From a plasmid, in the sequence record NZ_CP070571.1: a DNA stretch of 64,000 bases; one strand, written 5' to 3'. Position numbers and translations under genes: made by a program. Under the pieces are notes generated by a model. It had not been told where the DNA came from and did no database searches. It worked only from the letters and a program-made list of their open reading frames with translations. Every line of letters starts with the position of its first letter. Position 1 is the first letter of the stretch. Positions 26,978 through 61,278 of the stretch are shown one piece after another.

Positions 26978-26982
26978 CTTAC
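26978..26982. repeat. 5-bp target-site duplication CTTAC (copy 1) flanking IRR
   Basis: Identical CTTAC immediately outside IRL at 61274-61278. Confidence 0.8.
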
Positions 26983-27063
26983 CAGATGAAATCCTCTCCG
27001 GTTCCGGTGACACCCCGCAAGCTGAAAGCTGAAATGGAGGCTATCGCCAGAACAGCCCGATAA
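26983..27063 (+). pseudogene. 3-prime part of a 51-codon leading-region gene split by the Tn2-like insertion (5-prime part at 61204-61278)
   Basis: Joining 61204-61278 to 26983-27063 gives one ORF MKKFICNRNGKAVFQEGDRELVAAYQMKSSPVPVTPRKLKAEMEAIARTAR. It is preceded by a partial CUP promoter/leader. Confidence 0.6.
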
Positions 27064-27135
27064 TCAATCACCCGCGCCGTTGGCGCGGGTATCCCTCATA
27101 GCGGCGGCAACCGCTTTTTGCGAAGGAGCAACGCG

Positions 27136-27393
27136 ATGTGTATTGATCACGTCCTCACCTTTCCCGTTCCCCTGGAAGATGCCAGCTTGCTGGCAGACTA
27201 CTGCGGGTTTGAAGTGTATCCCACCTACAGCACGAACCGGGCCGATGAAACGCCCCGTTTTTCCGTGGTGGCACTTCATCGCCACAAAGCCAGGCTGGAA
27301 ACGTTAGCCGTGGCCGACACGGAGAAAAGCGCCCATGCTTTCCGCGATATGGCCGAGATTACCGCCGCTTACTACTTACATTTTCGGCGGTAA
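27136..27393 (+). CDS. hypothetical protein (85 aa)
   Basis: ORF MCIDHVLTFPVPLEDASLLADYCGFEVYP... Confidence 0.4.
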   Translation: MCIDHVLTFPVPLEDASLLADYCGFEVYPTYSTNRADETPRFSVVALHRHKARLETLAVADTEKSAHAFRDMAEITAAYYLHFRR

Positions 27394-27397
27394 TACG

Positions 27398-27586
27398 ATG
27401 AACGATTATCTATCCCTCATGGAACAGGCACGACAGGCAGAGGATTTGCGCGACTGGAAAACCGCCGCGCAGCTCTACACTCAGGCAATGGCCGTTAGTC
27501 CAAAAGCCAGAACGATGCGCCAGCGCCGCGAAAGGCTGAACCTACAGCAGCGTATCGACTTTTGCGAGCGTAACGCGAGAACGTAA
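27398..27586 (+). CDS. hypothetical protein (62 aa)
   Basis: ORF MNDYLSLMEQARQAEDLRDWKTAAQLYTQAMA..., followed by a terminator. Confidence 0.4.
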   Translation: MNDYLSLMEQARQAEDLRDWKTAAQLYTQAMAVSPKARTMRQRRERLNLQQRIDFCERNART

Positions 27587-27595
27587 AAACTAAAA

Positions 27596-27626
27596 AAAAC
27601 CGCCTCATACGGCGGTTTTTTTTCTG
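27596..27626. terminator. bidirectional rho-independent terminator (aaccgcc-tcatac-ggcggtt plus T-run)
   Basis: GC hairpin with flanking A-run and T-run, between convergent genes. Confidence 0.6.
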
Positions 27627-27627
27627 G

Positions 27628-28431
27628 TTAGGTTGGCTGGTATTCTGCCTTTCCGCAGTGTTCGCCACCACAGTACAGGATCAGGCCCGGCTTTCCCCAC
27701 ACGTTCGTATGGCATTTCGGGCAGGTGTATTTTGTCCGGTTTGATTTATTCACCGGCGTATCTGGCGGCGGGTTTACCAGCGAAAGGGCTTGTGTGATCT
27801 CATCGTCCAGCTCGCCATCGTCGCCGTATCCCTCGTCCTCATAATCTTCGTCATCAACATACCCTTTACCGTCTGCGCCGGTTGGCGTTGGTGGCGTTGG
27901 TTTGTGTGGCGGGAACCGATCCAGCCAGCTTAGTTTAAACTCCGTGGTAAGCAGCTCCTTGCAGGCGGTATCAAACGCGCCGCCGTCCTCGATGTAATGA
28001 CTCATGGACTCACCGACGCGCTTACCTCCTGGCTGGCCGGTGTCGGATGGTATCAGGCCGATGCGCTCCATCAACGCCGCCCATTCTTTATTGTGGTATC
28101 CACGGCGGCCCGGTTTGCCGGTGTGTTGCTGCAACTGGTGAACCATTTCATGCACAAGTGTGGAAAGCGTGTCGCGTATCGTGCGGATCGAGAAATAGAC
28201 CGGATTCATGGCGATTTCATCAACGATTTGTCCGGTTGAGCGACCAACAAAGCGACCATTCGAGAAATAGCCATACGTTCTTTTTTCGCGCTGAAGGGTG
28301 ATAAGGCAAGGCGGCAGCGCACTTTCAAACAGGCGTTGATTGAAAAATTCGTAGGCGCGTTGAAGCTCGTCGTAAGTTTCCTGGGTAGGGATGATCATAG
28401 CGGCCTCACAATGGGTTTCTGGATTGCACAA
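27628..28431 (-). CDS. SprT-like zinc metallopeptidase domain protein with C-terminal zinc ribbon
   Basis: 267 aa. HEMVHQLQQH (HExxH) motif. C-terminal CPKCH...CGGEHC. Acidic DDEDYEDEGYGDDGELDDE linker. Confidence 0.6.
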   Translation of the reverse strand: MCNPETHCEAAMIIPTQETYDELQRAYEFFNQRLFESALPPCLITLQREKRTYGYFSNGRFVGRSTGQIVDEIAMNPVYFSIRTIRDTLSTLVHEMVHQLQQHTGKPGRRGYHNKEWAALMERIGLIPSDTGQPGGKRVGESMSHYIEDGGAFDTACKELLTTEFKLSWLDRFPPHKPTPPTPTGADGKGYVDDEDYEDEGYGDDGELDDEITQALSLVNPPPDTPVNKSNRTKYTCPKCHTNVWGKPGLILYCGGEHCGKAEYQPT

Positions 28432-28475
28432 ACCATTTTATTGATTATGGATTGTGCAATCCACTTTTATTTTTG

Positions 28476-28557
28476 GGCGTTCCCTGCGGGCGGGCTTTCG
28501 TGCTGCGCATCGAGCCAGGCAAGCTGTCTCGCCCCTTCGGGCTTCAATCCCTAACGC
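28476..28557. repeat. REP2, an 82-bp GC-rich repeat (GGCGTTCCCTGCGGGCGGGCTTTCGTGCTGCGCATCGAGCCAGGCAAGCTGTCTCGCCCCTTCGGGCTTCAATCCCTAACGC), copy 1 of 4
   Basis: Near-identical copies at 57636-57718, 59142-59224 and 59765-59847. Confidence 0.8.
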
Positions 28558-28611
28558 AATCGAGGCCAAAAAAAACGGCCCGGATAGGGCCGCTTCAGGT
28601 CAGGCTTTTTG

Positions 28612-28980
28612 TCAGTGAAGCAGGAACGTTATAGCCGCCGCGCCGAGCGCTCCACCAACGAAGGAACAGACAACCGTGATAATCAGAATCTGCCTGATAA
28701 GCGCTTGCGAAAACCCTGTTTGCGCTCCGGCCAGACGTTCAAAAAATTGGTCGCTAACCTTCTGCTCCTTCTTCAGAGTGTTGACCAGCTCGCGCTGGCT
28801 TGCGATCACTTCTGTTTTCGCCACCTCAGATGATTTCTTTATTTCATCGGAGGCTTTATCCAGCCGTTCTACTGTTTCGGTAACGCTTGTGGTTACGCTT
28901 TCCAGTTTTGAGGTGATTTCTTTCGCATCGCCTAAAAACCAGTCCATCAGGATATCTAATTTATCAGGTTGCTTTTCCAT
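28612..28980 (-). CDS. stbC: StbC-like protein (C-terminal TM helix)
   Basis: 122 aa, last gene of the stbABC-like operon. Confidence 0.55.
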   Translation of the reverse strand: MEKQPDKLDILMDWFLGDAKEITSKLESVTTSVTETVERLDKASDEIKKSSEVAKTEVIASQRELVNTLKKEQKVSDQFFERLAGAQTGFSQALIRQILIITVVCSFVGGALGAAAITFLLH

Positions 28981-28981
28981 A

Positions 28982-29692
28982 TTATTCAGCCGTTAATATT
29001 TCAAAGGTACGATCAAGATTACGTTTAACCGGCAGCGCTAATTTCATCCAGCGATAACGCCGCGCAGCCGCCGCGCGTTCGTCGGCATCAGTGCAGGATT
29101 TAGCTTTCGCTTTAAATGTTTCTGGATCTTCAGCCAGCAGTTCTTCAAACGAAATTTTGTGATACGCGAGGTATTCATAAATTTCACTTTCAAAAACGGC
29201 GGCATCTTTATGAATAGAGGCTTTTTTAGAATCCTTCGCCCATTCATACACTGAAGCAATATCTTCCTGCGGAGTTGCTTTAATGCGGTTAGGCAGAAGA
29301 ACAATTTTGGATTTTGGAACGCCAGCAGCGCTTAACGCGAGAGCGGTCTTAATACTTTCCTGCCATGCTTTATCATCCGGGGTAACAGGAATAAGATATT
29401 TATCAAATTCATCAATTGCACCCTCGTATTTTGTCATGGTAGAAAGAAAACGCTCTACGTTCGACGCGCCAATATCCACGATGGCGTTATCTTCAAATAC
29501 GATTTCTTCAACCAGTTGACCAAAATTATCCCCGGTCAAACTCATTACTTCATCAACACCCAAATCAGCCGCCGACATATTGATTGTCTCGATGGCAAAG
29601 AATTTTGCGCCAGCCATGCGAGGATACAGCAGGTATGACGAAATAATAGTTTTGCCGACACTGCCACTGTAGTTCATTACTGCAATTTTCAT
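28982..29692 (-). CDS. stbB: StbB-like ParA-family ATPase
   Basis: 236 aa. N-terminal deviant Walker A MNYSGSVGKT. Confidence 0.75.
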   Translation of the reverse strand: MKIAVMNYSGSVGKTIISSYLLYPRMAGAKFFAIETINMSAADLGVDEVMSLTGDNFGQLVEEIVFEDNAIVDIGASNVERFLSTMTKYEGAIDEFDKYLIPVTPDDKAWQESIKTALALSAAGVPKSKIVLLPNRIKATPQEDIASVYEWAKDSKKASIHKDAAVFESEIYEYLAYHKISFEELLAEDPETFKAKAKSCTDADERAAAARRYRWMKLALPVKRNLDRTFEILTAE

Positions 29693-29704
29693 CTATTCGC
29701 TCCT

Positions 29705-30139
29705 TTAGAAACCTTTTTTATTACCTACGCTACCTTTGAATGAGGACGCAACTTTTTTTGCCTCATCCCCGATTTTTTTAAAATCGGTATCGGACAGAAA
29801 TTCTTTGTTCCCGCCCATATCCTCAACTAACTTTTCTGATTCTGGATTGTGCAATCCAGTATCTTCCGGTTTTGCTTCTTCCTGCGGTTTTGGATTGTGC
29901 AATCCATTTTTTACCGTACTTTCTGGATTGTGCAATCCACCTTTTTTACGCTTTAACCTGGCCCGGTACAATGCCATTTCCAGCGCTTTCGGTGTTACGG
30001 AAAAGCTATATTCAGCATCAAGCAGTTGAGCAATCTCTTGCCTCGATACACCTTTATCCAGCCAGCCCTCGATCTCATCTAAACGAGTTCGTACTGCTGC
30101 CGAAAGGTTACGAGGTTCTAACTCGGTTGCCTTTTTCAT
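29705..30139 (-). CDS. stbA: StbA-like DNA-binding protein (binds oriT-proximal repeats in R388/IncN-type systems)
   Basis: 144 aa, MKKATELEPRNLSAAVRTRLDEIEGWLDKGVSRQEIAQLL. Three GLHNP peptide repeats. Confidence 0.75.
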   Translation of the reverse strand: MKKATELEPRNLSAAVRTRLDEIEGWLDKGVSRQEIAQLLDAEYSFSVTPKALEMALYRARLKRKKGGLHNPESTVKNGLHNPKPQEEAKPEDTGLHNPESEKLVEDMGGNKEFLSDTDFKKIGDEAKKVASSFKGSVGNKKGF

Positions 30140-30614
30140 ACCCTCTCCTTCGTCTGCATTTGAATGTACGTTAACCCGTTTATCCCGTCAACCCGATTTT
30201 GTAGTTTTTTGGTAGTTTTTTAGTAGTTGGTTGCTTTTGTTTGTAGTCTATATGTAGTTATTCTGTAGTTTTTACCACAATTCAACTATCTAGGTGTGTA
30301 GTCTTTCTGTAGTCTATTTGTAGTGGCTGGTAAAAAAACTTTCATGCAAGCATGAAAGTGGTGAATGTGAACGCTTTTTGAGCGATTCACTTGCACGTAA
30401 CACCGGTTTCTCCCTTAAAAAAGGCGTGGTATGGTATCCCTTAACGGCTATACACCATACGCAATTACGATTTTCATCGTAAATGCTTGAAAACAAAACA
30501 AATTATTCTAATTTGTGTTTTAATGTGTAATACGCAACGTATTACACATGTGGAATTAAGCCGCATATATGCTAGATTTGAATGTATTACATCGGTATTA
30601 CACAAAGGAAACCT
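30140..30614. promoter_or_regulatory. oriT region. It has an ACTACA/TGTAGT repeat array (30198-30326), palindrome CTTTCATGC-AA-GCATGAAAG (30339-30358) and further palindromes (GTGTAATACG-CAA-CGTATTACAC) before the traK-like gene
   Basis: Divergent stbA / relaxosome-gene intergenic region, as in R388 and IncN plasmids. nic not located. Confidence 0.6.
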
Positions 30615-30962
30615 ATGCCATCTATCAGTTTAAGAGTGACCGAAGCGCAAAAAATCGACCTTGAATACCGTTCGGAGGGCAACGTATCGGAGTACATCAA
30701 GCAACAGCTTTTTGGACAAAAAGAGAGTGCCAGTGAAGTGATCGCCCGGCTTGATAAACTGCTGGAACGTTCATCTTCAGAGCAGCAAGCCGCCGGACGA
30801 GATCGATACATCGAGGCAATGTTGATTGAGGTGTTATTGATACTTCGCCAGGTGAGTAAAGCAGATGCGCAGAAAGTTGCCGGTGGTGAAATTCGCCGGT
30901 TAGGGCTGGAGCCGTGGTCAGCAGAGCTGGCCCAGGAGAGAGAGGAACAGAGTCATGAATGA
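30615..30962 (+). CDS. TrwA/TraK-like relaxosome accessory protein (ribbon-helix-helix)
   Basis: MPSISLRVTEAQKIDLEYRSEGNVSEYIKQQLF has an RHH N-terminus. It sits between oriT and the T4CP. Confidence 0.65.
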   Translation: MPSISLRVTEAQKIDLEYRSEGNVSEYIKQQLFGQKESASEVIARLDKLLERSSSEQQAAGRDRYIEAMLIEVLLILRQVSKADAQKVAGGEIRRLGLEPWSAELAQEREEQSHE

Positions 30963-32532
30963 AGCGGATAAGGGCAAAATCTGCCTGGGGGCATTGCTTT
31001 TTACCCCCCTTGTTACGTGGTTTATCGCGGCGAAAGCCTTGTATGGTTTTACGCCAAAAGATGCGCGTGAACGTCTGGTTTTACTTATTCAGCAGACTTT
31101 TGATTTATGGCCTTTATGGGGTGCTTTATTAGTCGGTGAAATTATTGCCATCATAGGCTTAATCATATTTTTCAAATTTAATCACCAGATATTTAAAGGT
31201 GCACCATTTAAGAAAATATATCGTGGTACGCGGCTTGTTTCTCAGCGGGCTTTAGCATCCATAACTAAAGAAAGAGAGCCGCAAATAACAATAGCCGATA
31301 TTCCAATCCCTACAAAAGCGGAAGGTACACATATTTCAATAGCCGGGGCGACCGGTGTTGGTAAATCAACAATCTTTGCTGAAATGATGAAATGTTGCTT
31401 GATGCGTGGAAAAATGCAACGTGTTGCCTCAAATAAAGACCGCATGATAATCCTCGATCCAGATGGCGATTTCCTTTCTCGTTTTTATAAAAAAGGCGAT
31501 AAGATTTTAAATCCCTATGATGCCAGAACAGAAGGGTGGGTATTTTTCAACGAAATAAAAAGTGATTTTGACTTTGAGCGATTCGGTGTTTCTATCGTAC
31601 CTACAGCGAAGGATTCGCAAACAGAAGAATGGAATGGATACGGTCGTCTTTTATTTACCGAGGTATCCCGTAAAGTATTTAACACAAGTCGAAACCCAAC
31701 GATGGAAGAAGTATTCTACTGGACAAATGAAGTACCACTGGAAGAACTTGAAGAATATGTCAGAGGCACTAAAGCACAGGCTTTATTTGCTGGTAGCGGT
31801 CGGGCCGTTGGTAGTGCTCGCTTTGTGCTTAGTAATAAACTTGCCGCTCACCTGAAAATGCCAGCAGGGAACTTCTCAATTCGTGAATGGCTGGAAGATC
31901 CGAAAGGCGGGAATCTGTATATCACCTGGACAGATGAAATGCGTGAAGCCTTGAAATCGCTTATTTCATGCTGGACAGATAGCATATTTTCTATTGTGTT
32001 AGGTATGAGCAAGAGCAACTCCCGTAAAATCTGGACGTTTATAGATGAACTGGAATCCCTTGATTACCTGCCATCATTACGTGATGCGTTAACAAAAGGT
32101 CGTAAAAAAGGACTACGGGTTGTCACCGGCTATCAGTCTTATTCGCAGGTCATTAGCATCTATGGCAGTGATGTAGCTGAAACCCTTCTGTCTAACCATC
32201 GTACATCGGTTGTTATGGCCGCTGGTCGCCTGGGTGAAAGAACCCTCGAATTTGTCTCTAAATCATTGGGGGAGATTGAGGGCGAAAGAGAAAAAACGGG
32301 GATTAGCCGCCGCTTTGGTCAGTTGGGAACCAAAAATACCAATGATGATCACAAGCGCGAGCGGGCTGTAACGCCAACCGAAATCGCCACGCTGGATGAT
32401 CTGACCGGCTACATCGCGTTTCCAGGAAATCTGCCAGTGGCTAAATTTGAGACTCATCACGTTAACTACACTCGTTCTAACCCTGTACCGGGCGTGGTCT
32501 TACGTGAAAGCACCGCATTTGCAGGAATGTAA
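30955..32532 (+). CDS. virD4: type IV coupling protein (VirD4/TrwB/TraJ family)
   Basis: 525 aa. N-terminal TM helices. Walker A GATGVGKST. Confidence 0.9.
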   Translation: MNEADKGKICLGALLFTPLVTWFIAAKALYGFTPKDARERLVLLIQQTFDLWPLWGALLVGEIIAIIGLIIFFKFNHQIFKGAPFKKIYRGTRLVSQRALASITKEREPQITIADIPIPTKAEGTHISIAGATGVGKSTIFAEMMKCCLMRGKMQRVASNKDRMIILDPDGDFLSRFYKKGDKILNPYDARTEGWVFFNEIKSDFDFERFGVSIVPTAKDSQTEEWNGYGRLLFTEVSRKVFNTSRNPTMEEVFYWTNEVPLEELEEYVRGTKAQALFAGSGRAVGSARFVLSNKLAAHLKMPAGNFSIREWLEDPKGGNLYITWTDEMREALKSLISCWTDSIFSIVLGMSKSNSRKIWTFIDELESLDYLPSLRDALTKGRKKGLRVVTGYQSYSQVISIYGSDVAETLLSNHRTSVVMAAGRLGERTLEFVSKSLGEIEGEREKTGISRRFGQLGTKNTNDDHKRERAVTPTEIATLDDLTGYIAFPGNLPVAKFETHHVNYTRSNPVPGVVLRESTAFAGM

Positions 32533-32534
32533 AT

Positions 32535-35444
32535 ATGCTGAACATTACGACGATTACCCGCCAGCGTGTCGATAAGGTTGTTGATTACTATGCTGATGGC
32601 GCAGACGATTACTATGCGAAAGACGGTAACGCGATGCAGTGGCAAGGCGCTGGCGCGGAAGAACTGGGCTTAACCGGCGAGGTAGAACAAAAACGGTTTG
32701 CGAAATTGCTTGATGGCAAAGTAACGGATGACATTTCCGTGATGCGTAAAACGGCCAACAGCGAAAGCAAAGAACGATTGGGATACGATCTTACGTTTTC
32801 CGCGCCGAAAGGCGTTACGCTTCAGGCACTGGTCAACGGTGATAAACGTATCATTGAAGCGCACGATCGGGCGGTCACTAAAGCCATCGAGGAAGCGGAA
32901 CGGCTGGCACTAGGCCGCTTTACCGTCAATAAAAAAACGCACGTTGAAAACACGAATAAGCTGATTGTCGGCAAATTTCGACACGAAACGTCACGCGAGC
33001 TAGACCCGGATTTGCACACCCATGCCTTTGTAATGAACCTCACCAAAACCAGCGATGGTAAATGGCGTTCGCTCACGAATGACGGCATTGTGAATTCGCT
33101 TACGTTATTGGGTAACGTTTACAAATCCGAGCTGGCAAGAGAGCTGGAGCTGGCCGGTTACAACCTGCGTTATGATCGGAATGGTACGTTTGATTTGGCG
33201 CATTTCAGCCAGGAGCAGATAGCCCAATTCAGCCAGCGCAGCCAGCAGATTGAGGCCGAGTTAGCAAAGAATGGTTTAAGCCGTGAAACGGCCAGCCATG
33301 AGCAAAAAAATGCGGCCGCTCTGAAAACTCGTAAAAGCAAAGGCGAAGTAGATCGCGATGTACTCTATGAGGGCTGGAAAAACCGCGCCAAAGAGCTTCA
33401 GATTGATTTTGATAGCCGGGAGTGGAAAGGTGCGGCCAACGACGATATAGCGCGGAATACGCAGCCAGCGGCGCTGGAAAAGCCTATCGAGTACCAGGCT
33501 GACAAGGTAATGACCTTTGCCATTCGTTCACTTACCGAACGTCAATCGGTGATTACCGAGCGGGAGCTGATGGACGTGGCGATGAAGCATGGCTATGGCC
33601 GCTTAACCCTCGATGATATTCGGGCTGCGAGAGAACGGGCCATAACCTCCGGCAACCTCATCAAAGAAGAAGCAACATACGCAGCGGCCACGACCAATAA
33701 AAAACAGCAGAACGTAGCAATGACCCGCGAACAATGGGTAACGGAACTGGTGAAAGCTGGCCGCAATAAAGATGAGGCCCGTAAACTCGTAGATAAGGGC
33801 ATCACAAACGGGCGGCTGGTACAGCAAAAGCCGCGTTTTACCACACAGTTAGCTCAACAACGCGAACGCAACATACTGAAGATGGAGCGGGAAGGGCGCG
33901 GAAAGATCCAGACCCCATACACTCGCGAGTTTAGCGAGGGCTGGTTAGCCAGCAGAACGTTAAAACCCGAACAGTTAAAAGCGGTTATGGGAATTATTCA
34001 TACCCCCAACCAGTTTATTTCTGTACATGGGTTTGCCGGTACTGGCAAAAGTTATATGACCAAATCGGCAGCGGATTTTCTAAAAGAGCAGGGCGTACAC
34101 GTCACCAGTCTTGCCCCCTACGGTAGCCAGGTTAAAGCGCTTCAGGCTGAAGGGCTGGAATCTCGCACACTCCAGTCTTTCCTCCGGGCCTCAGATAAAA
34201 AAATTGGCCCCGGCTCAGTAGTTTTTATTGACGAAGCAGGGGTAATCCCGGCCCGCCAGATGGAGGAAACCATGCGCGTGATCCGCGATGCGGGCGCACG
34301 AGCGGTATTCCTGGGCGATACTAAACAGACTAAAGCCGTCGAAGCGGGTAAACCTTTCGAGCAGCTTATTAAAGCCGGTATGGAAACGGCCTATATGAAA
34401 GATATTCAGCGCCAGAAAGACCCGGAATTGCTGAAAGCCGCGCTAAATGCAGCAGAAGGGAAAATAAAGGCGTCGTTGACCCACGTAACCAGCATCGTAG
34501 AGGAAAAAAATCATGATCAGCGCTACCGCCGCATTGTCGGGGATTACGTGGCAATGCCGCCGACAGACCGGGCTAACGCCCTGATCATCACCGGCACGAA
34601 CGACAGCCGGAAAAAAATTAATGAGTACATTCAGGCCGAGCTGGGGCTAAAAGGCCAGGGTATCAATTACCCGCTTCTGAACCGTCTTGATACCACTCAG
34701 GCCCAGCGGCAGCACAGCAAATATTACGAAAAAGGAGCCGTGATTATCCCGGAACGGGATTACAGCAACGGGCTGAAACGCGGGGCCGTTTATACCGTTC
34801 TCGATACCGGCCCCGGCAATAAACTTACGGTAAGCGACGGCAGCGGCGACACAATCGCATTTTCACCGGCGCGATTTTCCAAATTATCCGTGTACTCAGT
34901 TGAAAAAACGGAGCTGGCCGTAGGCGACCAGGTAAGGATCACCCGTAACGATGCGCATCTGGATTTAGCGAACGGCGACCGTTTTAAGGTAAAAGGCGTC
35001 CAGAGTGGTGAGGTACTGCTGGAGAACGAGAAAGGGCGACTGGTAAAAATTGATGCCAACAAACCTATGTATTTAGGGCTGGCTTACGCTTCGACCGTTC
35101 ATAGCGCTCAGGGGCTAACCTGCGACAAGGTTTTTATCAATATGGATACCCGATCACTCACAACGGCCAAAGATGTTTATTACGTGGCTGTCACCCGCGC
35201 TAAACACGAAGCCGTCATTTACACAGACGATGAGAAGAAGCTGGATAAAGCGGCCAGCCGTGAAGGGTTCAAAACCGCCGCGCTTGAGCTGGAACAACTC
35301 AAACGCTATGCCAAAGAGCAGCAGCATGATGCCCGCGAAAAAGGCCGAGACAAAACCGAGCCGACGCAGGAAAAAGACAATTCCAAGCGTAAAGGCAAAG
35401 GTCATGACAAAAATAACGACGAGAGAGCATTTACCTCGCTCTAA
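32535..35444 (+). CDS. traI: MOBF relaxase-helicase (TrwC/TraI family)
   Basis: 969 aa. N-terminal relaxase with histidine triad HTHAFVMN. C-terminal helicase Walker A GFAGTGKS. Confidence 0.9.
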   Translation: MLNITTITRQRVDKVVDYYADGADDYYAKDGNAMQWQGAGAEELGLTGEVEQKRFAKLLDGKVTDDISVMRKTANSESKERLGYDLTFSAPKGVTLQALVNGDKRIIEAHDRAVTKAIEEAERLALGRFTVNKKTHVENTNKLIVGKFRHETSRELDPDLHTHAFVMNLTKTSDGKWRSLTNDGIVNSLTLLGNVYKSELARELELAGYNLRYDRNGTFDLAHFSQEQIAQFSQRSQQIEAELAKNGLSRETASHEQKNAAALKTRKSKGEVDRDVLYEGWKNRAKELQIDFDSREWKGAANDDIARNTQPAALEKPIEYQADKVMTFAIRSLTERQSVITERELMDVAMKHGYGRLTLDDIRAARERAITSGNLIKEEATYAAATTNKKQQNVAMTREQWVTELVKAGRNKDEARKLVDKGITNGRLVQQKPRFTTQLAQQRERNILKMEREGRGKIQTPYTREFSEGWLASRTLKPEQLKAVMGIIHTPNQFISVHGFAGTGKSYMTKSAADFLKEQGVHVTSLAPYGSQVKALQAEGLESRTLQSFLRASDKKIGPGSVVFIDEAGVIPARQMEETMRVIRDAGARAVFLGDTKQTKAVEAGKPFEQLIKAGMETAYMKDIQRQKDPELLKAALNAAEGKIKASLTHVTSIVEEKNHDQRYRRIVGDYVAMPPTDRANALIITGTNDSRKKINEYIQAELGLKGQGINYPLLNRLDTTQAQRQHSKYYEKGAVIIPERDYSNGLKRGAVYTVLDTGPGNKLTVSDGSGDTIAFSPARFSKLSVYSVEKTELAVGDQVRITRNDAHLDLANGDRFKVKGVQSGEVLLENEKGRLVKIDANKPMYLGLAYASTVHSAQGLTCDKVFINMDTRSLTTAKDVYYVAVTRAKHEAVIYTDDEKKLDKAASREGFKTAALELEQLKRYAKEQQHDAREKGRDKTEPTQEKDNSKRKGKGHDKNNDERAFTSL

Positions 35445-35721
35445 CTGACTAATCCCCCGAACAGCACCGGCAGAACAAACCCACCCCGGATTATTGGGAG
35501 CCGGTATTGTCCGGGGGGCATTATCGTAGCATTTGTGTTGCATACAGCCCGTAAAAACTCATTCAGTGAACTTGAACAACCGTTTGTGTGGCCACGTCGC
35601 CGGCAGCAGCTGGCCAACGCCGGCGCCGAAAACGAGAAGTGAATAAAAACATAAAGTTATGAGGGGAGGGGATAAGAAAAGGGCATTCAAAAATTTCGAT
35701 GCCCTTTTGTGGAAACCTGCG

Positions 35722-35916
35722 CTATCGCGGGGAAAAACCTTCTTCGGCCATTGCCCTCTGTAATTTATCGACGGCATCCTTGATGACATACGCCTCGTCA
35801 TCATCAACAGCACACCCCCGTAAATCACTCCACGTCAACCGCTTAACAAACTGCGCCAGCGCCAGCGCTTCTTTGTCATCCAGCTCTAAAGACAACGTGT
35901 TGATACCTTGACCCAT
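35722..35916 (-). CDS. hypothetical protein (64 aa)
   Basis: ORF 12 nt downstream of the GNAT gene. Confidence 0.35.
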   Translation of the reverse strand: MGQGINTLSLELDDKEALALAQFVKRLTWSDLRGCAVDDDEAYVIKDAVDKLQRAMAEEGFSPR

Positions 35917-35927
35917 AACCCACCTCG

Positions 35928-36422
35928 TTAGTCTGTAAAACGGTACGTTTTCTTACCGCCCTGCGTTTCATGAATCAGCTTAAACCCGCTTCCGGCCAGC
36001 AGTCTCATCATTTTTGTGGCCGGGGGGAGACAGGAGGCTTCCAGCCGGTGTCCGGGCGTGGCTTCGATGATTGAGGCAAGCATACTCTTTCCAATGCCTT
36101 TACCCTGCTCATCAGCCGCAACAGCGAACATACGGATCTCAAGATGAGATGCCCGGCCCGCAAAATCATTGCGGCCGGTTAACAGCGAAAATCCCACCGG
36201 CTGCCGCGTTAACTTCTCGGCAAAGACAAAGAGATAATCCCCTACGGGGATATTATCTCTGTATTGTTGGGTGACACTTTGTAGCTCAGATCTCACTGTT
36301 TCAAGACCGTTGCCCTCGGCATAGAAAAATGCGCCAGATGTTATCCCATCGCGCACCAGGTTCATGATGAAAGGAATATCGCCGCTGTTTCCTAATCGCA
36401 TATCAAGCATATCGTTCTCCAT
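35928..36422 (-). CDS. GNAT-family N-acetyltransferase
   Basis: Start taken at Met30 of ORF 35928-36509, whose ATG overlaps the nuc stop by 1 nt (translational coupling). AcCoA motif QGKGIGKSML. Confidence 0.65.
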   Translation of the reverse strand: MENDMLDMRLGNSGDIPFIMNLVRDGITSGAFFYAEGNGLETVRSELQSVTQQYRDNIPVGDYLFVFAEKLTRQPVGFSLLTGRNDFAGRASHLEIRMFAVAADEQGKGIGKSMLASIIEATPGHRLEASCLPPATKMMRLLAGSGFKLIHETQGGKKTYRFTD

Positions 36423-36976
36423 CAATAAGACGGGGTAAAATCCCGGCCCTGATTCCAGCGTGATTGCCAGTGCTTCAGGTACTGCCCGGCCAGTTCTGGC
36501 GCGTCCCACATCACAATCGCGTTTTCAGAGTTATATTTCTCGGCACTGGCCGTGTAGTTAAAACTGCCAGTTTCCACATGACGGCCATCAACGATGATCA
36601 CCTTGTCATGCTGGATTTTGTAGTTACTGTTAACCCGCAGCGGAATACCCGCGTTCGTAACAAGATTCATTGCCGCACGACTTGCGCGGCCCGTATTGCC
36701 ATTCTCATCAACGACAATTTTCACGTCTACACCGCGGCGTTTGGCCGCAATCAGCGCTTTCATAATATCGGGGGCGGTAAAGCTGTAGGCCATCATTCTG
36801 ATGTTATCTTTTGCCGAGCCGATTACGTTGATAACGAGCTGCTGCGCGGTTCCTTCCGGCGAGAAACCTACTTGCGCCGATGCAGCAAAAAGAGACGGGG
36901 CCGAAGCCCCGTAAAGTACGGCGGCAACCAGTGCCGCTTTAAAGAGAAAGTTGCGCTTTTTTAAACGCTGGATCAT
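36422..36976 (-). CDS. nuc: Nuc-like phospholipase-D-family periplasmic endonuclease
   Basis: Signal peptide [43 protein letters not shown] motif. Start chosen downstream of the virB11 stop. Confidence 0.8.
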   Translation of the reverse strand: MIQRLKKRNFLFKAALVAAVLYGASAPSLFAASAQVGFSPEGTAQQLVINVIGSAKDNIRMMAYSFTAPDIMKALIAAKRRGVDVKIVVDENGNTGRASRAAMNLVTNAGIPLRVNSNYKIQHDKVIIVDGRHVETGSFNYTASAEKYNSENAIVMWDAPELAGQYLKHWQSRWNQGRDFTPSY

Positions 36977-37970
36977 AAAGAACCTCAACAATCTGGCGGT
37001 GTTCCATGTACACCACAACATCTATCGTGGTGTACAGCGTTTTCATAATCACGTCATAATCCAGCGTCTGGCCGACGCCGGTTTGCTTGATAAGCAGCGC
37101 AATACGGCTGAAAGTGGATTTTGCATCGTCGGCGTGGGTGGATGTGATCCCGCCCGGATGCCCGGTATTCAGCGAGTTTATGTAATCCCATGCTGCATCA
37201 TCCCTAAGCTCTGTCATCATGATACGGTCGGGAGAAAGACGCATACACGCTTTCAGGCTGACCGCCGGGGCCAGACGGCCATCCTGATCGCCGTACAGCA
37301 TATAAACCATTTCGTGATGCAGATCAGACCCAATTTCGTGAACGTCCTCTGAAACTACAATGCGCTCGGTATAAGGCACTTCCCGAAGCAGGGAGCGGGT
37401 AAACGTTGATTTACCCGAACCGGTAGACCCTGATACAACGATGTTCAGCTTGTTGCGTACCGCAATTTTAAAAAACGAAACGAGGTCGTCTTTATCGAGC
37501 AACTCCAGCAATTCTTGCTCGAATGGCTGAAGGGCTACTTCACCCTGAACCTTTCGTTTCCAGCCAGTGAAACGGCCCTCATCGCGGAGTTGTTCAAGAG
37601 ACTTATCAACGGGCAGATGCTTACGAAACGCGATGGCTACTGTTCCCTCCAGTACGGCAGGGGGTAAGCAAATAATTCCCCTTGAGCCGTCCGGCAGAAG
37701 CACGTTATTAACGGACTCTTTCGGTAGTCCGTTATAACCACAAAGCGTGTCGGTTAAGCGTGATATATATTCAGCCGTAATTTTCTCATCGTCGTGGAAA
37801 ATACGACCTTTCGACGTTTCACAGACAACCTGCTGATACTTGTTAATTCTCAGCTCCCACACATCGGGATCACTCAGGTAGCGCTGAAGTGGTTCGAGCG
37901 TCAGCCATACCCCCTGCTCACGGCGGGGGCGTTGGCGAATATCTTGAATATTACTGGTTAACTCAGTCAT
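36939..37970 (-). CDS. virB11: VirB11-family T4SS ATPase
   Basis: 343 aa. Walker [10 protein letters not shown]. Confidence 0.9.
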
Positions 37971-39117
37971 TCATTTCTAACCCATATACAGTGCTGAAAT
38001 CCAGATCGCGGGCTACGTAGATAGATACGGCATCGCCCTGCGCAGCGTAGAGCGTTGGCGGGATATTAATCTTCGCCCGTAATGCTTCAGTAGCAAGCTG
38101 GTCGGTACTGTTTTCCGTTGTGTTAAACGACACATCAGAGTTGTTGTTGTTAATCGACGCGATACCGGCTTTCATGCCATCAGTCAGCACAGAGAAGAAA
38201 ATGGCATCGCCCATTCGTTCCCAAAAGTGAGAGTTGACCTGACCAGGTACGCCCGCACTACCTAAAGCGTTAGTGCCGCTGCTGTCGAGGTTAACAATGG
38301 TCTGATCCGGGTTACGCAAGCGTGACCAGAGAACGAACACACGATTCTGGCCGTTCTGGATACCGCTATTCTGCTCGCCAGTGACCACAGCCCCTTTATC
38401 AATCAGTTTTACAGTACCATCAGCAGAGTACACATCACGGCTTACAGTACATTTCACCTGGCCCGGAACCGTGGTATCCAGTTCCGTATTTGTACCGCAA
38501 GGAATCATTGTTCCCTGCGCAATGGTCAGATTTGGATGCGGCATTACAGATGCCTGGGCAACAGCCATACGCGCCGGTTTCATTCGGCTCGCCAGTGCCT
38601 GGCTGTTTGAGCTGGTTTCTGTATTGTCCTGACCTGACCGGCGTTCCTGTTCTTTCGCAGTCGTAGCCTGTTTCTCAGGATCAACACCGTTGAAGGACAC
38701 CCCTAACCGGGCGCGCATAATTTTTTCTTCCGGTGATAATTCCTTTTTCTGGTTATTCAATGTTTGACGCGCAACCTGCTGCTGCGGCTCCTGCGTTGTC
38801 TGCAACGGAGGAACAACGCTATTTTTCGGCGTGTTGTCGATGGTCGGCGGCACATCATCAAAAGACTGGCGCGGTAAGGAGCTGGTCATAACCTGCTCTT
38901 TATCCTTTTTGGGATCGTCGGCCAGCTTCTTAACGTGCATCTGGTTATAGATGAACCACCCCACCATTGCCGAACCGATCAACACCATCAGCCCGACAAA
39001 GGCCCGCGCACCGGCAATACGTTTTTTGGGGGAACCACTGAAGCCCTGACGCTCATCCTCAATGCCGGTATCTTCTTCATCGAGGTAATCTAAATTTTCC
39101 TCTCTGTCTTTTCTCAT
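37963..39117 (-). CDS. virB10: VirB10-family T4SS protein
   Basis: 384 aa, Pro-rich region after the TM. Confidence 0.85.
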
Positions 39118-40001: not shown

Positions 40002-40003
40002 GA

Positions 40004-40720: not shown

Positions 40721-40722
40721 TG

Positions 40723-40893
40723 TTACTCTCCGTTGTTAGCGGCATCTGCACGATACAGCTCGGCGGGATACGTCTTATTAACATCAACCAGCTTTTTCAT
40801 GTTGGGTTCTGGCGGCGGCGTCGGGCTACTGGAACAGGCGGCCAACAGCAGCCCGATAAGTGCCATTGCCGTGTATTTGAAGAAATGCACCAT
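40723..40893 (-). CDS. virB7: VirB7-like small lipoprotein
   Basis: Start at internal Met giving MVHFFKYTAMALIGLLLAACSS lipobox. Lies between virB8 and virB6. Confidence 0.6.
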   Translation of the reverse strand: MVHFFKYTAMALIGLLLAACSSSPTPPPEPNMKKLVDVNKTYPAELYRADAANNGE

Positions 40894-52215: not shown

Positions 52216-53100
52216 GTGACAGATAAACCAGTACCAGCGAAGCAAATAAAAACGGTAAATACCGGCATCGCAATTAAAGAGAATCCCCCAAAAGGGGATG
52301 ATATGGCATTTACTCACTCGATATTGTGTCAGGTTGGCCTACCCCGTTCTAAGGTGGATGGCCGCGAGTTTATGAGGAAATCAGGTGATGCCTGGCTGGT
52401 CGTCCAAGCTGGCTGGCTTGATGAAGGGAGCGGGCCTGTAGAACAACCGATCCCCTATGGTTCAATGCCTCGTTTAGCGCTCGCATGGGTATCCTCTTAT
52501 GCTCTCCGCAAAAAGACCCGCGAAATACCGATCGGTAAGAGTGCAAACGAGTTTCTGCAATTAATGGGCTTATCAGGCGGCGGCAGACAATACAAGACGT
52601 TGCGCGAACAAATGCACGCGCTGGCCGCTTGCCGCTTGCAGCTCGGATTTAAAGGACGTTCTTTCAACGGTCAGCCGGTAGAACAATTCGATGCCTGGCA
52701 GAAAGACGACCAAAGCGGCCAGCTAAGTTTATGGCCGGGCGTGATGACGCTATCAGAAGGGTATTTTAATGGGCTAATTGATAGCGCCGTTCCTCTCGAT
52801 AACCGCGCTCTGTACGCGCTAAAAGGTTCGGCATTGTCGTTAGATGTTTATACGTGGCTGGCACATCGCTTACACCGCATCGAGGGCCGCCCGATTAAAC
52901 TTCACTGGATGAATTTACGGGAACAGTTCGCCCAAGAGTACATGGGTAAAGACCCTGACAAGGATTTCAAAAAGAAATTTCTTCCAGCTCTGCGCGACGT
53001 TCTGACCGTATATCCACAGGCGAAGGTAGAAAAAGTTACCGGGGGAATATTACTTTTCCCTTCCCCGCCTCCCATCCCATTCAAGGAAGCAAAAAAATAG
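52216..53100 (+). CDS. repA: replication initiator RepA of the conjugative backbone (GTG start)
   Basis: 294 aa. AAGGAG SD 6 nt upstream. Followed by iterons. resolvase-repA-oriV order as in IncW/IncN-type replicons. Confidence 0.65.
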   Translation: MTDKPVPAKQIKTVNTGIAIKENPPKGDDMAFTHSILCQVGLPRSKVDGREFMRKSGDAWLVVQAGWLDEGSGPVEQPIPYGSMPRLALAWVSSYALRKKTREIPIGKSANEFLQLMGLSGGGRQYKTLREQMHALAACRLQLGFKGRSFNGQPVEQFDAWQKDDQSGQLSLWPGVMTLSEGYFNGLIDSAVPLDNRALYALKGSALSLDVYTWLAHRLHRIEGRPIKLHWMNLREQFAQEYMGKDPDKDFKKKFLPALRDVLTVYPQAKVEKVTGGILLFPSPPPIPFKEAKK

Positions 53101-53211: not shown

Positions 53212-53395
53212 CGTACATCCGACCCCCCCAATGATCGTACATGCGACCCCCTAGCTCGTACATCCGACCCCCTAGCTTTGTACATCCGACCCCCTAGCTC
53301 GTACATCCGACCCCCTTTTTTTGTACATCCGACCCCCTTTTTTTGTACATCCGACCCCCTAAAAACACGTACATCAGACCCCCCCTAAACCTATA
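53212..53395. repeat. oriV iterons: about 8 direct repeats of GTACATCCGACCCCC at about 22-bp spacing
   Basis: Seen directly downstream of repA. Confidence 0.8.
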
Positions 53396-54288: not shown

Positions 54289-54421
54289 CGCCTCACAGCC
54301 CCATAGAGCTGCCTCAACAAGAAAAACTAACTCAGGTATGGCCCGAACCAAGATAACCTCTTACAAAGCCATACAGGGCCATTCAACCAATATCACGCCA
54401 GTAATCCAGTTGTCATCGTGC

Positions 54422-54903
54422 CTGTAGGGGCGCTGGCCGCTACGCGGCCAACCCCCCAACACCCGGATAAATCACGCCCGGCCCGTCGCTACGCGCCAGC
54501 CCGCCCGCTCAACCGGGCCGTTGTGACGGGCCACTTTTCCGGCGGTGGTATCGTCTGACAGCCCGCCAAAACCGGCTTTGCAGGGAGGGGGTGGGTGCTT
54601 CGCCCTGGTCGGCGTCACCGGCGACGTAATGCCCTGCCCCGTTCAGCTCCGGGGAAGTGGGCGCGTCGCCCAGCTCGATGCCGTAAGGCCCGGCAATTTG
54701 ACCGCGCCGCCCAGGTGGAGATCGGCGCAGTTGCCTTTCATTTGTCGGCAGCGGTGCAAAATTTAAGTATCTTTATCGTACTATATAATGATACTAAAAG
54801 TTGACTTTTAAAGGGGGAAAGCCTATACTGTATTTATCGGTTAGCAATGGTGCTGACCGGCCCGGAACCAGCGGCGGCAACCGCTCCGGGTAAACTGCGA
54901 AGG
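54422..54903 (+). repeat. CUP-like conserved upstream element copy A (about 482 bp) with strong sigma70 promoter (-35 TTGACT 54801-54806, -10 TATACT 54824-54829) and structured leader
   Basis: Near-identical copies at 57770-58252 and 59973-60453. Partial copies at 55186-55257, 55546-55665, 58596-58640 and 61104-61193. Confidence 0.85.
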
Positions 54904-54911
54904 GGTGAAAA

Positions 54912-55181
54912 ATGAAATTAACCACGCTGCTGAAAAAACATTTTGATATTGAGGAATGTACCGATGTGGATAGCACCGTAAACCGGGAGGTGTATGCCAT
55001 TTGGGTTTATGAAAAAGGCGAAGATTGCGAGCCGCTATTAATTCTCAAAGATGCACAGGATTTTATGGGCGTGGATGGCTGGCTTGTCGGGAATATCTAT
55101 TCCACGTTGCAACATGGCTTATTGCTACAGCATGAAGAACTGAAAACGATGATCCGAAACGGCGAGATTAAGAGCCGTTAA
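54912..55181 (+). CDS. hypothetical protein (89 aa), first gene after CUP copy A
   Basis: ATG 8 nt after the leader end GCGAAGG. Confidence 0.5.
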   Translation: MKLTTLLKKHFDIEECTDVDSTVNREVYAIWVYEKGEDCEPLLILKDAQDFMGVDGWLVGNIYSTLQHGLLLQHEELKTMIRNGEIKSR

Positions 55182-57619: not shown

Positions 57620-57769
57620 CAGCAAAATTACTTATGGCGTTCCCTCCGGGGCGGGCTTTCGTGCTGCGCATCGAGCCAGGCAAGCTGTCTCGCCCCTCCG
57701 GGCTTCAATCCCTAACGCAATCAACTGCGCTCATCCTGATCTTGCCGGTTTTCTCCGGTGCCATCGTGC

Positions 57770-58252
57770 CTGTAGGGGCGCTGGCCGCTGCGCGGCCAAC
57801 CCCCCAACACCCGGATAAATCACGCCCGGCCCGTCGCTACGCGCCAGCCCGCCCGCTCAACCGGGCCGTTGTGACGGGCCACTTTTCCGGCGGTGGTATC
57901 GTCTGACAGCCCGCCAAAACCGGCTTTGCAGGGAGGGGGTGGGTGCTTCGCCCTGGTCGGCGTCACCGGCGACGTAACGCCCTGCCCCGTTCGGCTCCGG
58001 GGAAGTGGGCGCGTCGCCCAGCTCGATGCCGTAAGGCCCGGCAATTTGACCACGCCGCCCAGGTGGAGATCGGCGCAGTTGCCTTTTATTTGTCGGCAGC
58101 GGTGCAAAATTTAAGTATCTTTATCGTACTATATAATGATACTAAAAGTTGACTTTTAAGGGGGGAAAGCCTATACTGTATTTATCGGTTAGCAATGGTG
58201 CTGACCGGCCCGGAACCAGCGGCGGCAACCGCTCCGGGAAAACTGCGAAGGG
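57770..58252 (+). repeat. CUP-like element copy B
   Basis: Same sequence family as 54422-54903. Confidence 0.85.
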
Positions 58253-58259
58253 ATTAATT

Positions 58260-58568
58260 ATGAATACTTTCAACGCTGACAAATTCCGCTCTGAACTGGA
58301 TGTTTTATCGAAAACAACGATGCCCGGTTGTGGTCTTGTTTATGAGCTATACCAGCGTCGTTTGAGTGCTGCCATTGATAATTTGGTGGCTACATTGCCA
58401 GCAGAACAACACGCCCAGGCATTTGAACTGGCCCGCGAGGAATTTGATTACCTCTCTGCGGAAGATATTGCTGAAGAAATTCGCCGCGACTCAGAAAACG
58501 GCTATTGCAGCCACGGCCTTGATCGCAATTGCTGCCCTCTCGGTTGTGGGGATTTGGACGAGTATTAA
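58260..58568 (+). CDS. hypothetical protein (102 aa) driven by CUP copy B
   Basis: ATG 8 nt after the leader. C-terminal Cys cluster CSHGLDRNCCPLGCG. Confidence 0.5.
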   Translation: MNTFNADKFRSELDVLSKTTMPGCGLVYELYQRRLSAAIDNLVATLPAEQHAQAFELAREEFDYLSAEDIAEEIRRDSENGYCSHGLDRNCCPLGCGDLDEY

Positions 58569-59073: not shown

Positions 59074-59527
59074 TCGCGCGGGGGTAAATCCCCCGCTCTA
59101 CCTGTAGGGGCGTTGCCCCTTTTTTTGCGCCGGTGATCTCTGGCGTTCCCTGCGGGCCGGGCTTTCGTGCTGCGCATCGAGCCAGGCAAGCTGTCTCGCC
59201 CCTTCGGGCTTCAATCCCTAACGCCTCCGGGCTTCGCCCTCCGCACTCCGCTTGGCCTCCGGGCTTTGCCCTCCGCGCTTCGCTTGGCTTTTTCAGCCGG
59301 TGCCAACTCCGGGCCGCGAGGATAACCGGCGGGAGGCGAACTGTCCTCCACAGCTCCCCGTTCCGTTGGATGGTCTGCCGTTCCTCCATTACCGGTATTC
59401 CACACTAGCGCGGTGTGGCGTCAATAGTTCGCTTCGCCGCTTCGCGCTATTGACCCCACCCCTTGCGCCAGTGTTACACACCGGTTGTCGGAAACGACAA
59501 ACCCTCCAACTACCCTACAGGTGCTTT

Positions 59528-59632
59528 ATGGCCGAAATTCTCCAACTCCTCCCGCCGGTTATCCTCGCTATCGCAGCCCTCATCACAGCCATCACCGGTC
59601 TGATAAAAGTCCTGAAAAGCAAGAAGAAGTAA
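59528..59632 (+). CDS. 34-aa hydrophobic peptide with C-terminal KSKKK
   Basis: Own -35 TTGACC, an operator-like inverted repeat GTCAATAG-N22-CTATTGAC, an AGGTG SD and a strong terminator (59637-59664). Confidence 0.45.
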   Translation: MAEILQLLPPVILAIAALITAITGLIKVLKSKKK

Positions 59633-59636
59633 CGGA

Positions 59637-59664
59637 AAGGGGCGGCAAGCCGCCCCTTTCCCCT
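59637..59664 (+). terminator. rho-independent terminator (aaaggggcgg-caag-ccgcccctttcccc)
   Basis: Perfect 10-bp stem. Confidence 0.6.
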
Positions 59665-59972
59665 GCTCCCCTGGCTTACCCTGCTGTACGATCCGTGGAT
59701 TTCACAGCAGGGTTATTTTGGGTGATCGCCGTGATTGGCCCCGCTGCGGCCGCCGGTTACTCAGGGCGTTCCCTGCGGGCCGGGCTTTCGTGCTGCGCAT
59801 CGAGCCAGGCAAGCTGTCTCGCCCCTTCGGGCTTCAATCCCTAACGCCTCCGGGCTTTGCCCTCCGCGCTCCGCTTGGCCCCCACGCCCTGCGCCGGACT
59901 TGCCCCGCCTCCGGCGGCCCCGCCCCTTCGGGGTGGCTTCGCCATCCTCTGCCAGCAACGGCGCAATCGTGC

Positions 59973-60453
59973 CTGTAGGGGCGCTGGCCGCTGCGCGGCC
60001 ATCCCCCCAACACCCGGATAAATCACGCCCGGCCCGTCGCTACGCGCCAGCCCGCCCGCTCAACCGGGCCGTTGTGACGGGCCACTGTTCCGGCGGTGGT
60101 ATCGTCTGACAGCCCGCCAAAACCGGCTTTGCAGGGAGGGGGTGGGCGCTTCGTCCTGGTCGGCGTCACCGGCGACGTAATGCCCTGCCCCGTTCAGCTC
60201 CGGGGAAGTGGGCGCGTCGCCCAGCTCGATGCCGTAAGGCCCGGCAATTTGACCGCGCCGCCCAGGTGGAGATCGGCGCAGTTGCCTTTCATTTGTCGGC
60301 AGCGGTGCAAAATTTAAGTATCTTTATCGTACTATATAATGATACTAAAAGTTGACTTTTAAAGGGGGAAAGCCTATACTTTATTTACGGTTAGCAATGG
60401 TGCTGACCGGCCCGGAACCAGCGGCGGCAACCGCTCCGGGCAACCTGCGAAGG
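59973..60453 (+). repeat. CUP-like element copy C
   Basis: Same sequence family as 54422-54903. Confidence 0.85.
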
Positions 60454-60460
60454 AAAATGT

Positions 60461-60748
60461 ATGAATACGACTCTTGTTGTTTTAGTCCTCGCCATAACAG
60501 GCGCGTTATATCTCCCCTGGCGTCTTGTGCGCGACGGTTACAAAGAACTGGTGCAAATGTGCCTGTTTTGCTCCTGTATCGTCACGCTGGCCGCTGTATA
60601 CGCCGTGTTAGTTAATCTCGATACTCCACACCCGTTTATGCCAATGTTTATCGCGGTAACGGCGTTCGGTGCGGCATTCGTGGCTGACTGCGCTTTATCT
60701 CTCTGGCTCTATCAGCGTAAAGCTAACGCTAAGACGGCTAACCACTAA
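60461..60748 (+). CDS. hypothetical 3-TM membrane protein (95 aa) driven by CUP copy C
   Basis: ATG 8 nt after the leader. Confidence 0.5.
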   Translation: MNTTLVVLVLAITGALYLPWRLVRDGYKELVQMCLFCSCIVTLAAVYAVLVNLDTPHPFMPMFIAVTAFGAAFVADCALSLWLYQRKANAKTANH

Positions 60749-60808
60749 CCACTAACCACTAATTAAACCGCCCTGCGGGGCGGTTTCTAACCATGATACG
60801 GGGGAAAT

Positions 60809-61051
60809 ATGGGAAACATCATCCTGATGGCCGAGAAAACAAAAGGCGCGGTTTCTGAAGAAGCTGAAGTGTATGAATTTGAGGGAATGGATGATTTGAT
60901 CCGGTTTCGTAAGCGATTCCCTGAACAGATGAAATATGAATACCATTACCTGCTTTCCGGTGGCACGAAAAATTTTCAGCATATCGCGCTCGTTGAAGCC
61001 AACCATTTTAAGCAGTTCAAAAAGCTGGTTAATCTGTACCAGAATCGCTAA
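60809..61051 (+). CDS. hypothetical protein (80 aa)
   Basis: ORF MGNIILMAEKTKGAVSEEAEVYEFEGMDD... Confidence 0.4.
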   Translation: MGNIILMAEKTKGAVSEEAEVYEFEGMDDLIRFRKRFPEQMKYEYHYLLSGGTKNFQHIALVEANHFKQFKKLVNLYQNR

Positions 61052-61203
61052 CAACGCTGAACAGCGCGGCAATGCCGCGCTGCTGTATGACGTATTCTTT
61101 CGGTATTATATAATGATACTATAAGTTGACTTTTTAGGGCGGGGAAATTATACTGTATTTATCGGTTAGCAATGGTGCTGACCGTAAGCGAAGGAGCAAG
61201 GTT

Positions 61204-61278
61204 ATGAAAAAATTTATCTGCAACCGCAACGGCAAGGCGGTTTTTCAGGAAGGTGATCGGGAGCTGGTAGCCGCTTAC
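61204..61278 (+). pseudogene. 5-prime part (25 codons) of the leading-region gene split by the Tn2-like insertion
   Basis: MKKFICNRNGKAVFQEGDRELVAAY, then CTTAC and the IRL. Continues at 26983. Confidence 0.6.
61274..61278. repeat. 5-bp target-site duplication CTTAC (copy 2) flanking IRL
   Basis: Matches 26978-26982. Confidence 0.8.

Follow-up and report, generated by a model that had tools for sequence, protein, structure and literature searches.

The DNA analysed here is a stretch of 64,000 nucleotides (the window) from the plasmid record NZ_CP070571.1, in which a Tn3-family transposon has left a genuine insertion footprint within an IncN-type conjugative plasmid, i.e., matching CTTAC flanks outside its two terminal inverted repeats (IRs). 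Sequence comparisons identify the element as Tn1331Δ::IS26, a transposon of ~6 kb, and indicate that its interior was enlarged by the uptake of a complete IncR plasmid, and with it a second replicon, through the insertion sequence IS26. Our overall reading, that the 6-kb element transposed and its IS26 then mediated fusion with the IncR plasmid, is probable.

The 38-bp right terminal inverted repeat of Tn1331/Tn3 (IRR) lies at positions 26940–26977 (CTTAACGTGAGTTTTCGTTCCACTGAGCGTCAGACCCC) and matches the IRR of pJHCMW1 at 100% identity; the 38-bp left terminal inverted repeat (IRL) lies at 61279–61316 and likewise matches the pJHCMW1 repeat. IRL is the exact reverse complement of IRR (0 mismatches of 38), and these two are the sole copies of the repeat within the window, even when up to eight mismatches are tolerated. 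An initial annotation of this DNA had claimed that identical CTTAC flanks stand outside both ends, and this was borne out: one copy of the target-site duplication adjoins IRR at 26978–26982 and the other adjoins IRL at 61274–61278, both on the forward strand. Two fixed positions would share 5 bp by chance with a probability of 1/1024, and CTTAC is not enriched in the window (47 occurrences compared to 62.5 expected). The further claim of a single transposon insertion with a 5-bp duplication also held, given the perfect IR pair and the uninterrupted site present in relatives.

The insertion split an open reading frame (ORF) of 51 codons, hereafter ORF51. Its 5′ 25 codons, preceded by an AGGAG ribosome-binding site, occupy 61204–61278 on the forward strand, and its 3′ 26 codons and stop codon occupy 26983–27063 on the same strand. 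In its present form the ORF stops after 27 codons, within IRL, and it is inactivated by the insertion. Removal of the element and one CTTAC copy restores a frame of 156 nt that encodes MKKFICNRNGKAVFQEGDRELVAAYQMKSSPVPVTPRKLKAEMEAIARTAR* (51 amino acids), just as had been predicted. The initial annotation had also proposed that the joined flanks be sought in related backbones, and the uninterrupted target was found there: the rejoined 1000-bp site (500 bp per side, with one CTTAC) aligned end to end without gaps in 71 plasmid records and was 100% identical in three of them (NZ_CP056638, NZ_MF497781, and NZ_MG557999). Relatives annotate ORF51 as a 156-bp hypothetical gene (WP_021536821.1). Of 87 plasmid records, 85 contain it with a coverage of 80% or higher and 83 match it at no less than 99% identity; a Pfam search of the 51-residue product returned no significant family. 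Given that the fused plasmids are reported to transfer, the ORF is dispensable for conjugation. At the DNA level, ORF51 shows no differences from CP056935 (1927–2082), where the surrounding 1 kb differs at 31 positions and one gap (3.2%), a rate at which ~5 differences would be expected in the 156-bp ORF; the nucleotide sequence, too, may be constrained, or the region may be a recent mosaic.

Upstream of ORF51, an 82-bp stretch (61103–61184, forward strand) is a partial CUP repeat that matches the 3′ portion of the full CUPs at 87–90% identity. It includes a promoter-like TTGACT-17-TATACT (61126–61154), in agreement with the earlier description of a partial CUP promoter ahead of the ORF. Three full repeats of ~500 bp are located at 54411–54916, 57756–58267, and 59959–60468, and we take these to be the CUP elements of IncN leading regions as known from pKM101/R46. 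The label of leading region is a provisional one, based on gene content (ssb, ccgAII, the CUP repeats, and stbABC) and on what is known of pKM101. A search for MOBF nic-like motifs, aimed at oriT and the leading region, gave no match, and the nic site was not located.

Both transposon arms visible in the window are those of Tn1331/Tn3. The arm running from IRL into tnpA is identical to Tn1331 of pJHCMW1 at 2722 of 2722 positions; tnpA itself (61312–64000, reverse strand) reads inward from IRL and is open over its C-terminal 896 codons, running off the end of the window with its N-terminus beyond it. The opposite arm, from the truncated blaTEM to IRR, is identical at 320 of 320 positions and begins with the 3′ 174 nt of blaTEM (26658–26831, forward strand), cut by an IS26 that is joined at bla nucleotide 688. 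Tn1331Δ::IS26 of pAAC154, a named and described element (PMC6764390; PMC5142620), has this IS26|Δbla junction too. The left arm, a single IS26, and the right arm add up to 5,973 bp, of which 5972 are identical in the 13.8-kb ColE-type plasmid pBIC-1c, and the ΔaadA1|IS26|Δbla core is contiguous at 100% identity in many ST258-type plasmids (at least 259 records at 80% coverage or more). The segment tnpR-aac(6′)-Ib-ΔaadA1, followed by the left end of IS26, was seen in relatives that include p48659_KPC and lies outside the window here. The initial annotation had called the element Tn2-like; a Tn3-family insertion is upheld, but the assignment is refined to Tn1331Δ::IS26, as the visible arms are those of Tn1331/Tn3 and the res/tnpR region diagnostic of Tn2 falls outside the window. 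The Tn2 label does not discriminate here, because the 320-bp right arm is itself labelled “Tn2#” in PMC6764390. On sequence identity, then, the name Tn1331Δ::IS26 applies, and an assignment to Tn2 is not shown.

Inside the transposon, positions 1–25837 are part of an IncR plasmid. This part is 100% identical to plasmids typed as IncR and carries repB, iterons, and parAB; window positions 1–25841 match the free 39.7-kb IncR plasmid NZ_CP069829 with one mismatch, and positions 1–26246 cover 25.7 kb of the plasmid pCfr-31816cz. It had been proposed that the interior was expanded by IS26, Tn21-like, and IS903 events. The contribution of IS26 stands, but the Tn21-family and IS903 pieces arrived with the IncR plasmid, whose free form already has them, rather than by later insertion. 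The proposal that the interior runs from 61279 through position 1 to 26977 likewise holds in part. The window is itself an open slice of the plasmid, with one end 27 bp upstream of intI1 and the other within tnpA, and ~23.6 kb of the circle is missing from it. In p48659_KPC, however, 64000 and 1 are linked by the remainder of the Tn1331 arm, the blaKPC-2-bearing Tn4401a, mph(A), IS6100, chrA, sul1, and the integron cassettes aac(6′)-Ib-cr/blaOXA-1/catB3/arr-3; two independent counts agree on a gap of 23,618 bases.

The point of fusion is an 820-bp IS26 at 25838–26657 (forward strand), with IncR DNA to its left and ΔblaTEM to its right. No 8-bp duplication surrounds this copy (flanks ...ATCAACGCT and CTGATAAA...), which points to a conservative or homologous route rather than copy-in. 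The likely partner is found in pCfr-31816cz, a 46,826-bp IncR KPC plasmid without Tn1331 sequence, which contains the junction IncR|IS26(nt 1–408)|Tn4401a inverted repeat; the remainder of this IS26 (nt 404 onward) follows on the other side of Tn4401a, beside mph(A). In the related plasmid p46903_KPC, IS26 nt 404–408 are duplicated on both sides of the blaKPC-2-bearing Tn4401a, with the IS26 parts at 16518–16926 and 26833–27249. Judging from these junctions, Tn4401a inserted into an IS26 upstream of mph(A) and generated a 5-bp duplication there; this split IS26 is the apparent exchange partner, and because it is split at nt 404–408, only the left IS26 end can react.

The parental junctions are ΔaadA1|IS26|Δbla (pBIC-1c) and IncR|IS26(1–408)|Tn4401 (pCfr-31816cz), and the fusion junctions are IncR|IS26|Δbla and ΔaadA1|IS26(1–408)|Tn4401. 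The window holds one IS26; the second, truncated copy was seen in relatives only, where the reciprocal pattern is complete. IncR|IS26|Δbla is present in the window, p48659_KPC, pCfr-36049cz, and p46903_KPC. Both parental forms are widespread and this recombinant junction occurs only in five records of the Czech lineage, which fixes the direction of the exchange. Sizes also add up, with 46,826 + 5,973 + 28,549 equalling the 81,348 bp of pCfr-36049cz. The junctions, compared across records, show what would be a reciprocal exchange between the transposon IS26 and the Tn4401a-split IS26 of a plasmid of the pCfr-31816cz type. IS26 reactions at like ends that share identity have been described (PMC7885326).

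The 89-kb IncR-IncN3 blaKPC plasmids of Czech hospitals (p52810_KPC group) are the published match to the window. These were reported as conjugative fusions with a complete IncN3 transfer system, and the report itself describes the fusions without Tn1331, target sites, a duplication, or IS26 exchange (PMC8333104). In p48659_KPC, the ORF|CTTAC|IRL junction is identical to that of the window, with 100% identity over 10,972 bp. Its IRR (26911–26948) abuts the base equivalent to window position 46285, i.e., 19.3 kb of IncN backbone (26978–46284) has been deleted from the IR tip. A deletion that starts exactly at the tip indicates that the transposase still acts on these ends, and such end-abutting deletions are a known product of intramolecular transposition of Tn1331Δ::IS26 (PMC5142620). 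A second record of the right-hand junction was found in none of the complete Escherichia coli genomes, the GTDB species-representative genomes (searched with both junctions), or the JGI metagenomes.

Three settings were found for the IR pair and its IncR interior: ORF51 with its duplication, pCfr-36049cz, and p46903_KPC. In pCfr-36049cz, the pair lies between mobF (window 34326) and virB8 (window 40074), with unmatched flanks (ATATA/TAAAC), 5.7 kb deleted, the backbone inverted relative to the transposon, and ORF51 intact. We considered whether the plasmid of the window arose from pCfr-36049cz, or the reverse, by intramolecular transposition, and rejected this on account of that inversion and the intact ORF51. 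In p46903_KPC (7606–11684), the IR pair brackets exactly 4,079 bp (3001–7079) of the 25.7-kb plasmid NZ_CP026759. The same 4,079 bp of a Klebsiella aerogenes plasmid (ssb-ccdAB-repA) stands between IRR and IRL in the 54-kb IncR plasmids, with both boundaries inside genes. This segment is evidently what remains of a third target hit by these transposon ends.

A history in two steps would account for these observations. Tn1331Δ::IS26, with the structure IRL-tnpA-res-tnpR-aac(6′)-Ib-ΔaadA1-IS26-ΔblaTEM-IRR, would have transposed once into ORF51 of a conjugative IncN3-like plasmid, with duplication of CTTAC; this single transposition is the step shown directly by the footprint. The transposon IS26 would then have recombined with the left 404–408 bp of the Tn4401a-interrupted IS26 on a ~47-kb IncR blaKPC-2 plasmid of the pCfr-31816cz type, by either a RecA-dependent route or the “targeted conservative” reaction of Tnp26 at like ends. 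The outcome would be a two-replicon plasmid of ~87.6 kb in which the whole IncR plasmid lies between the transposon arms and the original duplication is kept at both transposon ends. We infer that the exchange came after the transposition and took place in this plasmid. Sequence alone does not decide between histories; the order of transposon first and fusion second is favoured, with the 6-kb element having hopped three times and each host having then fused with an IncR plasmid. Tn1331Δ::IS26 is known to insert with a 5-bp duplication, to generate end-abutting deletions, and to have taken up 44 kb through its IS26 (PMC5142620).

Several points weigh against this history. An unfused IncN3 plasmid with Tn1331Δ::IS26 at the CTTAC site was absent from the plasmid collection, in which only p48659_KPC has the junction; the window does not reach the truncated IS26 or the ΔaadA1 junction, which are taken from relatives; and the occurrence of the IR pair and IncR interior in three flanking contexts could also be explained by one mobile 53-kb unit. 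The last of these points leads to the most serious competitor, in which the IncR plasmid was already inside Tn1331Δ::IS26 elsewhere and the whole ~53-kb IR-bounded unit, with its IncR replicon and blaKPC-2, moved into CTTAC by replicative transposition followed by resolution at res. The same IR pair and internal junctions do recur in three contexts, relatives retain intact tnpA, tnpR, and IRs at both ends, the p48659_KPC deletion attests to active ends, and pCfr-36049cz (2014–16) is older than the 89-kb plasmids (2018–19). We nevertheless regard this route as rather unlikely. The 6-kb element alone is common, proven to be mobile, and known to make such deletions, IS26 fusion is frequent and reversible, and unfused intermediates would go unseen because only KPC-bearing plasmids were sequenced in those studies; these same considerations favour the history based on the 6-kb element. 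No sequence feature requires movement of the unit as a whole, and the truncated IS26, the free 6-kb element (in those 259 or more records), and the reciprocal junction set all count against it.

Two further explanations fare considerably worse. A Tn1331-type element at CTTAC might have had its interior replaced by double homologous recombination with an already fused plasmid, with crossovers in tnpA-tnpR-aac(6′)-Ib and in either IS26 or the 320-bp ΔblaTEM-IRR arm. Identical sequence is available for this, several kb on the left arm and 0.3–1.1 kb on the right. The transposon arms of the window are 100% identical to those of other fused plasmids, with no distinguishing differences seen. However, such a replacement needs two crossovers and a co-resident fused plasmid and explains nothing beyond a single IS26 exchange, making it very improbable. 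Scarcely any weight attaches to an unresolved Tn3-type cointegrate with two transposon copies, or to a chance 5-bp match between the ends of two unrelated insertions. At first sight the geometry fits, with IRs on both sides of the backbone and a second replicon between them. Yet both the window and the bridging relative p48659_KPC contain only a single IRL and a single IRR, the two flanks are adjacent bases in the 71 related plasmids, and the probability of a fortuitous match is as low as given above; with one IR pair only and an exact empty site, these readings are already refuted. Transposition of the 6-kb element followed by IS26-mediated fusion is the account that we favour.

The DNA between the transposon ends, 26978–61278 (34,301 bp including both CTTAC copies), is on sequence comparison a complete conjugative IncN (N3-like) plasmid. 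It is 97–99.7% identical to IncN plasmids of 34–35 kb, and the rejoined 34,296-bp backbone is collinear round the full circle with the bare 34,058-bp IncN plasmid NZ_CP083002 (p2-6712.08), in which the join maps to the adjacent bases 33277/33278. The backbone encodes a MOBF relaxase (32535–35444), a VirB-type type IV secretion system (~36939–47355), and RepA (52216–53100, followed by IncN iterons at 53212–53361), and it also carries stbABC, the gene for the type IV coupling protein, ssb, ccgAII, and the CUP repeats. The wastewater plasmid NZ_CP056638 (Citrobacter freundii, UK, 104 kb) is 100% identical to the backbone over 23.5 kb (window 28483–51977) and has an empty ORF51 site; its own backbone looks to be broken near window 28480, where ~70 kb of other DNA would represent a further fusion, at a site of its own.

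The IncR part includes intI1 (28–1041), tnpR-tnpA of the TnAs1/Tn21 family (1770–5300), IS903 (6618–7674), umuDC (12105–13807), parBA (13889–16068), ten 36-bp IncR iterons (16463–16838), repB (16929–17795), vapBC (21364–22007), and an IS110-family element (23349–24425), together with stbA, IS1, and a resD-like gene. Of these, repB with its iterons, parAB, umuDC, the resD-like gene, and vapBC make up a complete set of IncR maintenance functions. Between IS903 and IS1, a 37-bp unit is repeated in tandem in 22.5 copies (8166–8997); pCfr-36049cz and pCfr-31816cz carry a different number of copies, and their alignment with the window is broken at 8479–8684. Identical direct repeats of 128 bp, both of them left ends of IS903, occur at 6618–6745 and 25151–25278, and other IS903 fragments lie at 5334–5598 and 22043–22110. 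The IncR backbone between the 128-bp repeats is gone from p48659_KPC, which fits recombination across them. Short repeats also mark both plasmid parts. In the IncR part, ACTACAAATAA-type units recur in tandem upstream of stbA (5916–6100); in the IncN part, TGTAGT-rich repeats separate stbA from the coupling protein operon (30190–30330). Both sets are probably StbA-binding or oriT-associated.

Taken together, these findings provide a base-pair account of how, in a lineage from a hospital outbreak, a non-conjugative IncR blaKPC-2 plasmid came to be carried by a self-transmissible IncN3 backbone, and the CTTAC junctions supply an exact marker for tracking the fused lineage. Known mobile-element mechanisms are at work in a published plasmid lineage. 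As every mechanism involved, like the components, has already been described, the contribution is to molecular epidemiology rather than to new biology. The implications would be broader if the 53-kb segment were an active transposon that moved whole between at least three plasmid targets, with its IncR replicon, Tn4401a-blaKPC-2, class 1 integron, and mph(A); such a plasmid-sized transposon would bring a replicon and a carbapenemase in one step, a prospect that we hold to be doubtful.

Among the known systems closest to the window are the Czech fusion plasmids (pCfr-36049cz, the p52810_KPC group, and p48659_KPC), which have in common with it the IncN3 backbone (4 mismatches in 28.5 kb) and the IncR/multidrug-resistance part. 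The shared ORF51 junction sets p48659_KPC beside the window; pCfr-36049cz, in contrast, has its transposon ends elsewhere, with inversion and deletion. With Tn1331Δ::IS26 of pAAC154 (alias ISSwi1-m2, also in ST258-type Klebsiella pneumoniae plasmids), the element of the window shares identical IRs, tnpA, and IS26|ΔblaTEM junction, and in its relatives tnpR-aac(6′)-Ib-ΔaadA1|IS26 is identical as well. It differs in that its 5-bp duplication is intact, whereas most copies are without one (PMC6764390), and in that its arms are parted by a whole IncR plasmid.

The fusion resembles IS26 cointegration (the targeted conservative reaction of Harmer and Hall) or homologous recombination between IS26 copies, as in the change from pKPN-294 to pKPN-819, since no new 8-bp duplication is present and, going by the relatives, directly oriented IS26 copies would bound the incorporated DNA, with junctions reciprocal to those of the parents. 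It departs from these cases in that one partner IS26 was split by Tn4401a at nt 404–408 and that a complete replicon, rather than a fragment, was taken up. Large Tn3-family elements of the size of Tn4651/Tn4653 exist, as do Tn3-type cointegrate intermediates. As in those large elements, 53 kb is here bounded by functional-looking Tn3-type ends with a 5-bp duplication; unlike in them, or in replicon fusion by Tn3, there is no sign that the large unit moved as such and no second copy of the transposon.

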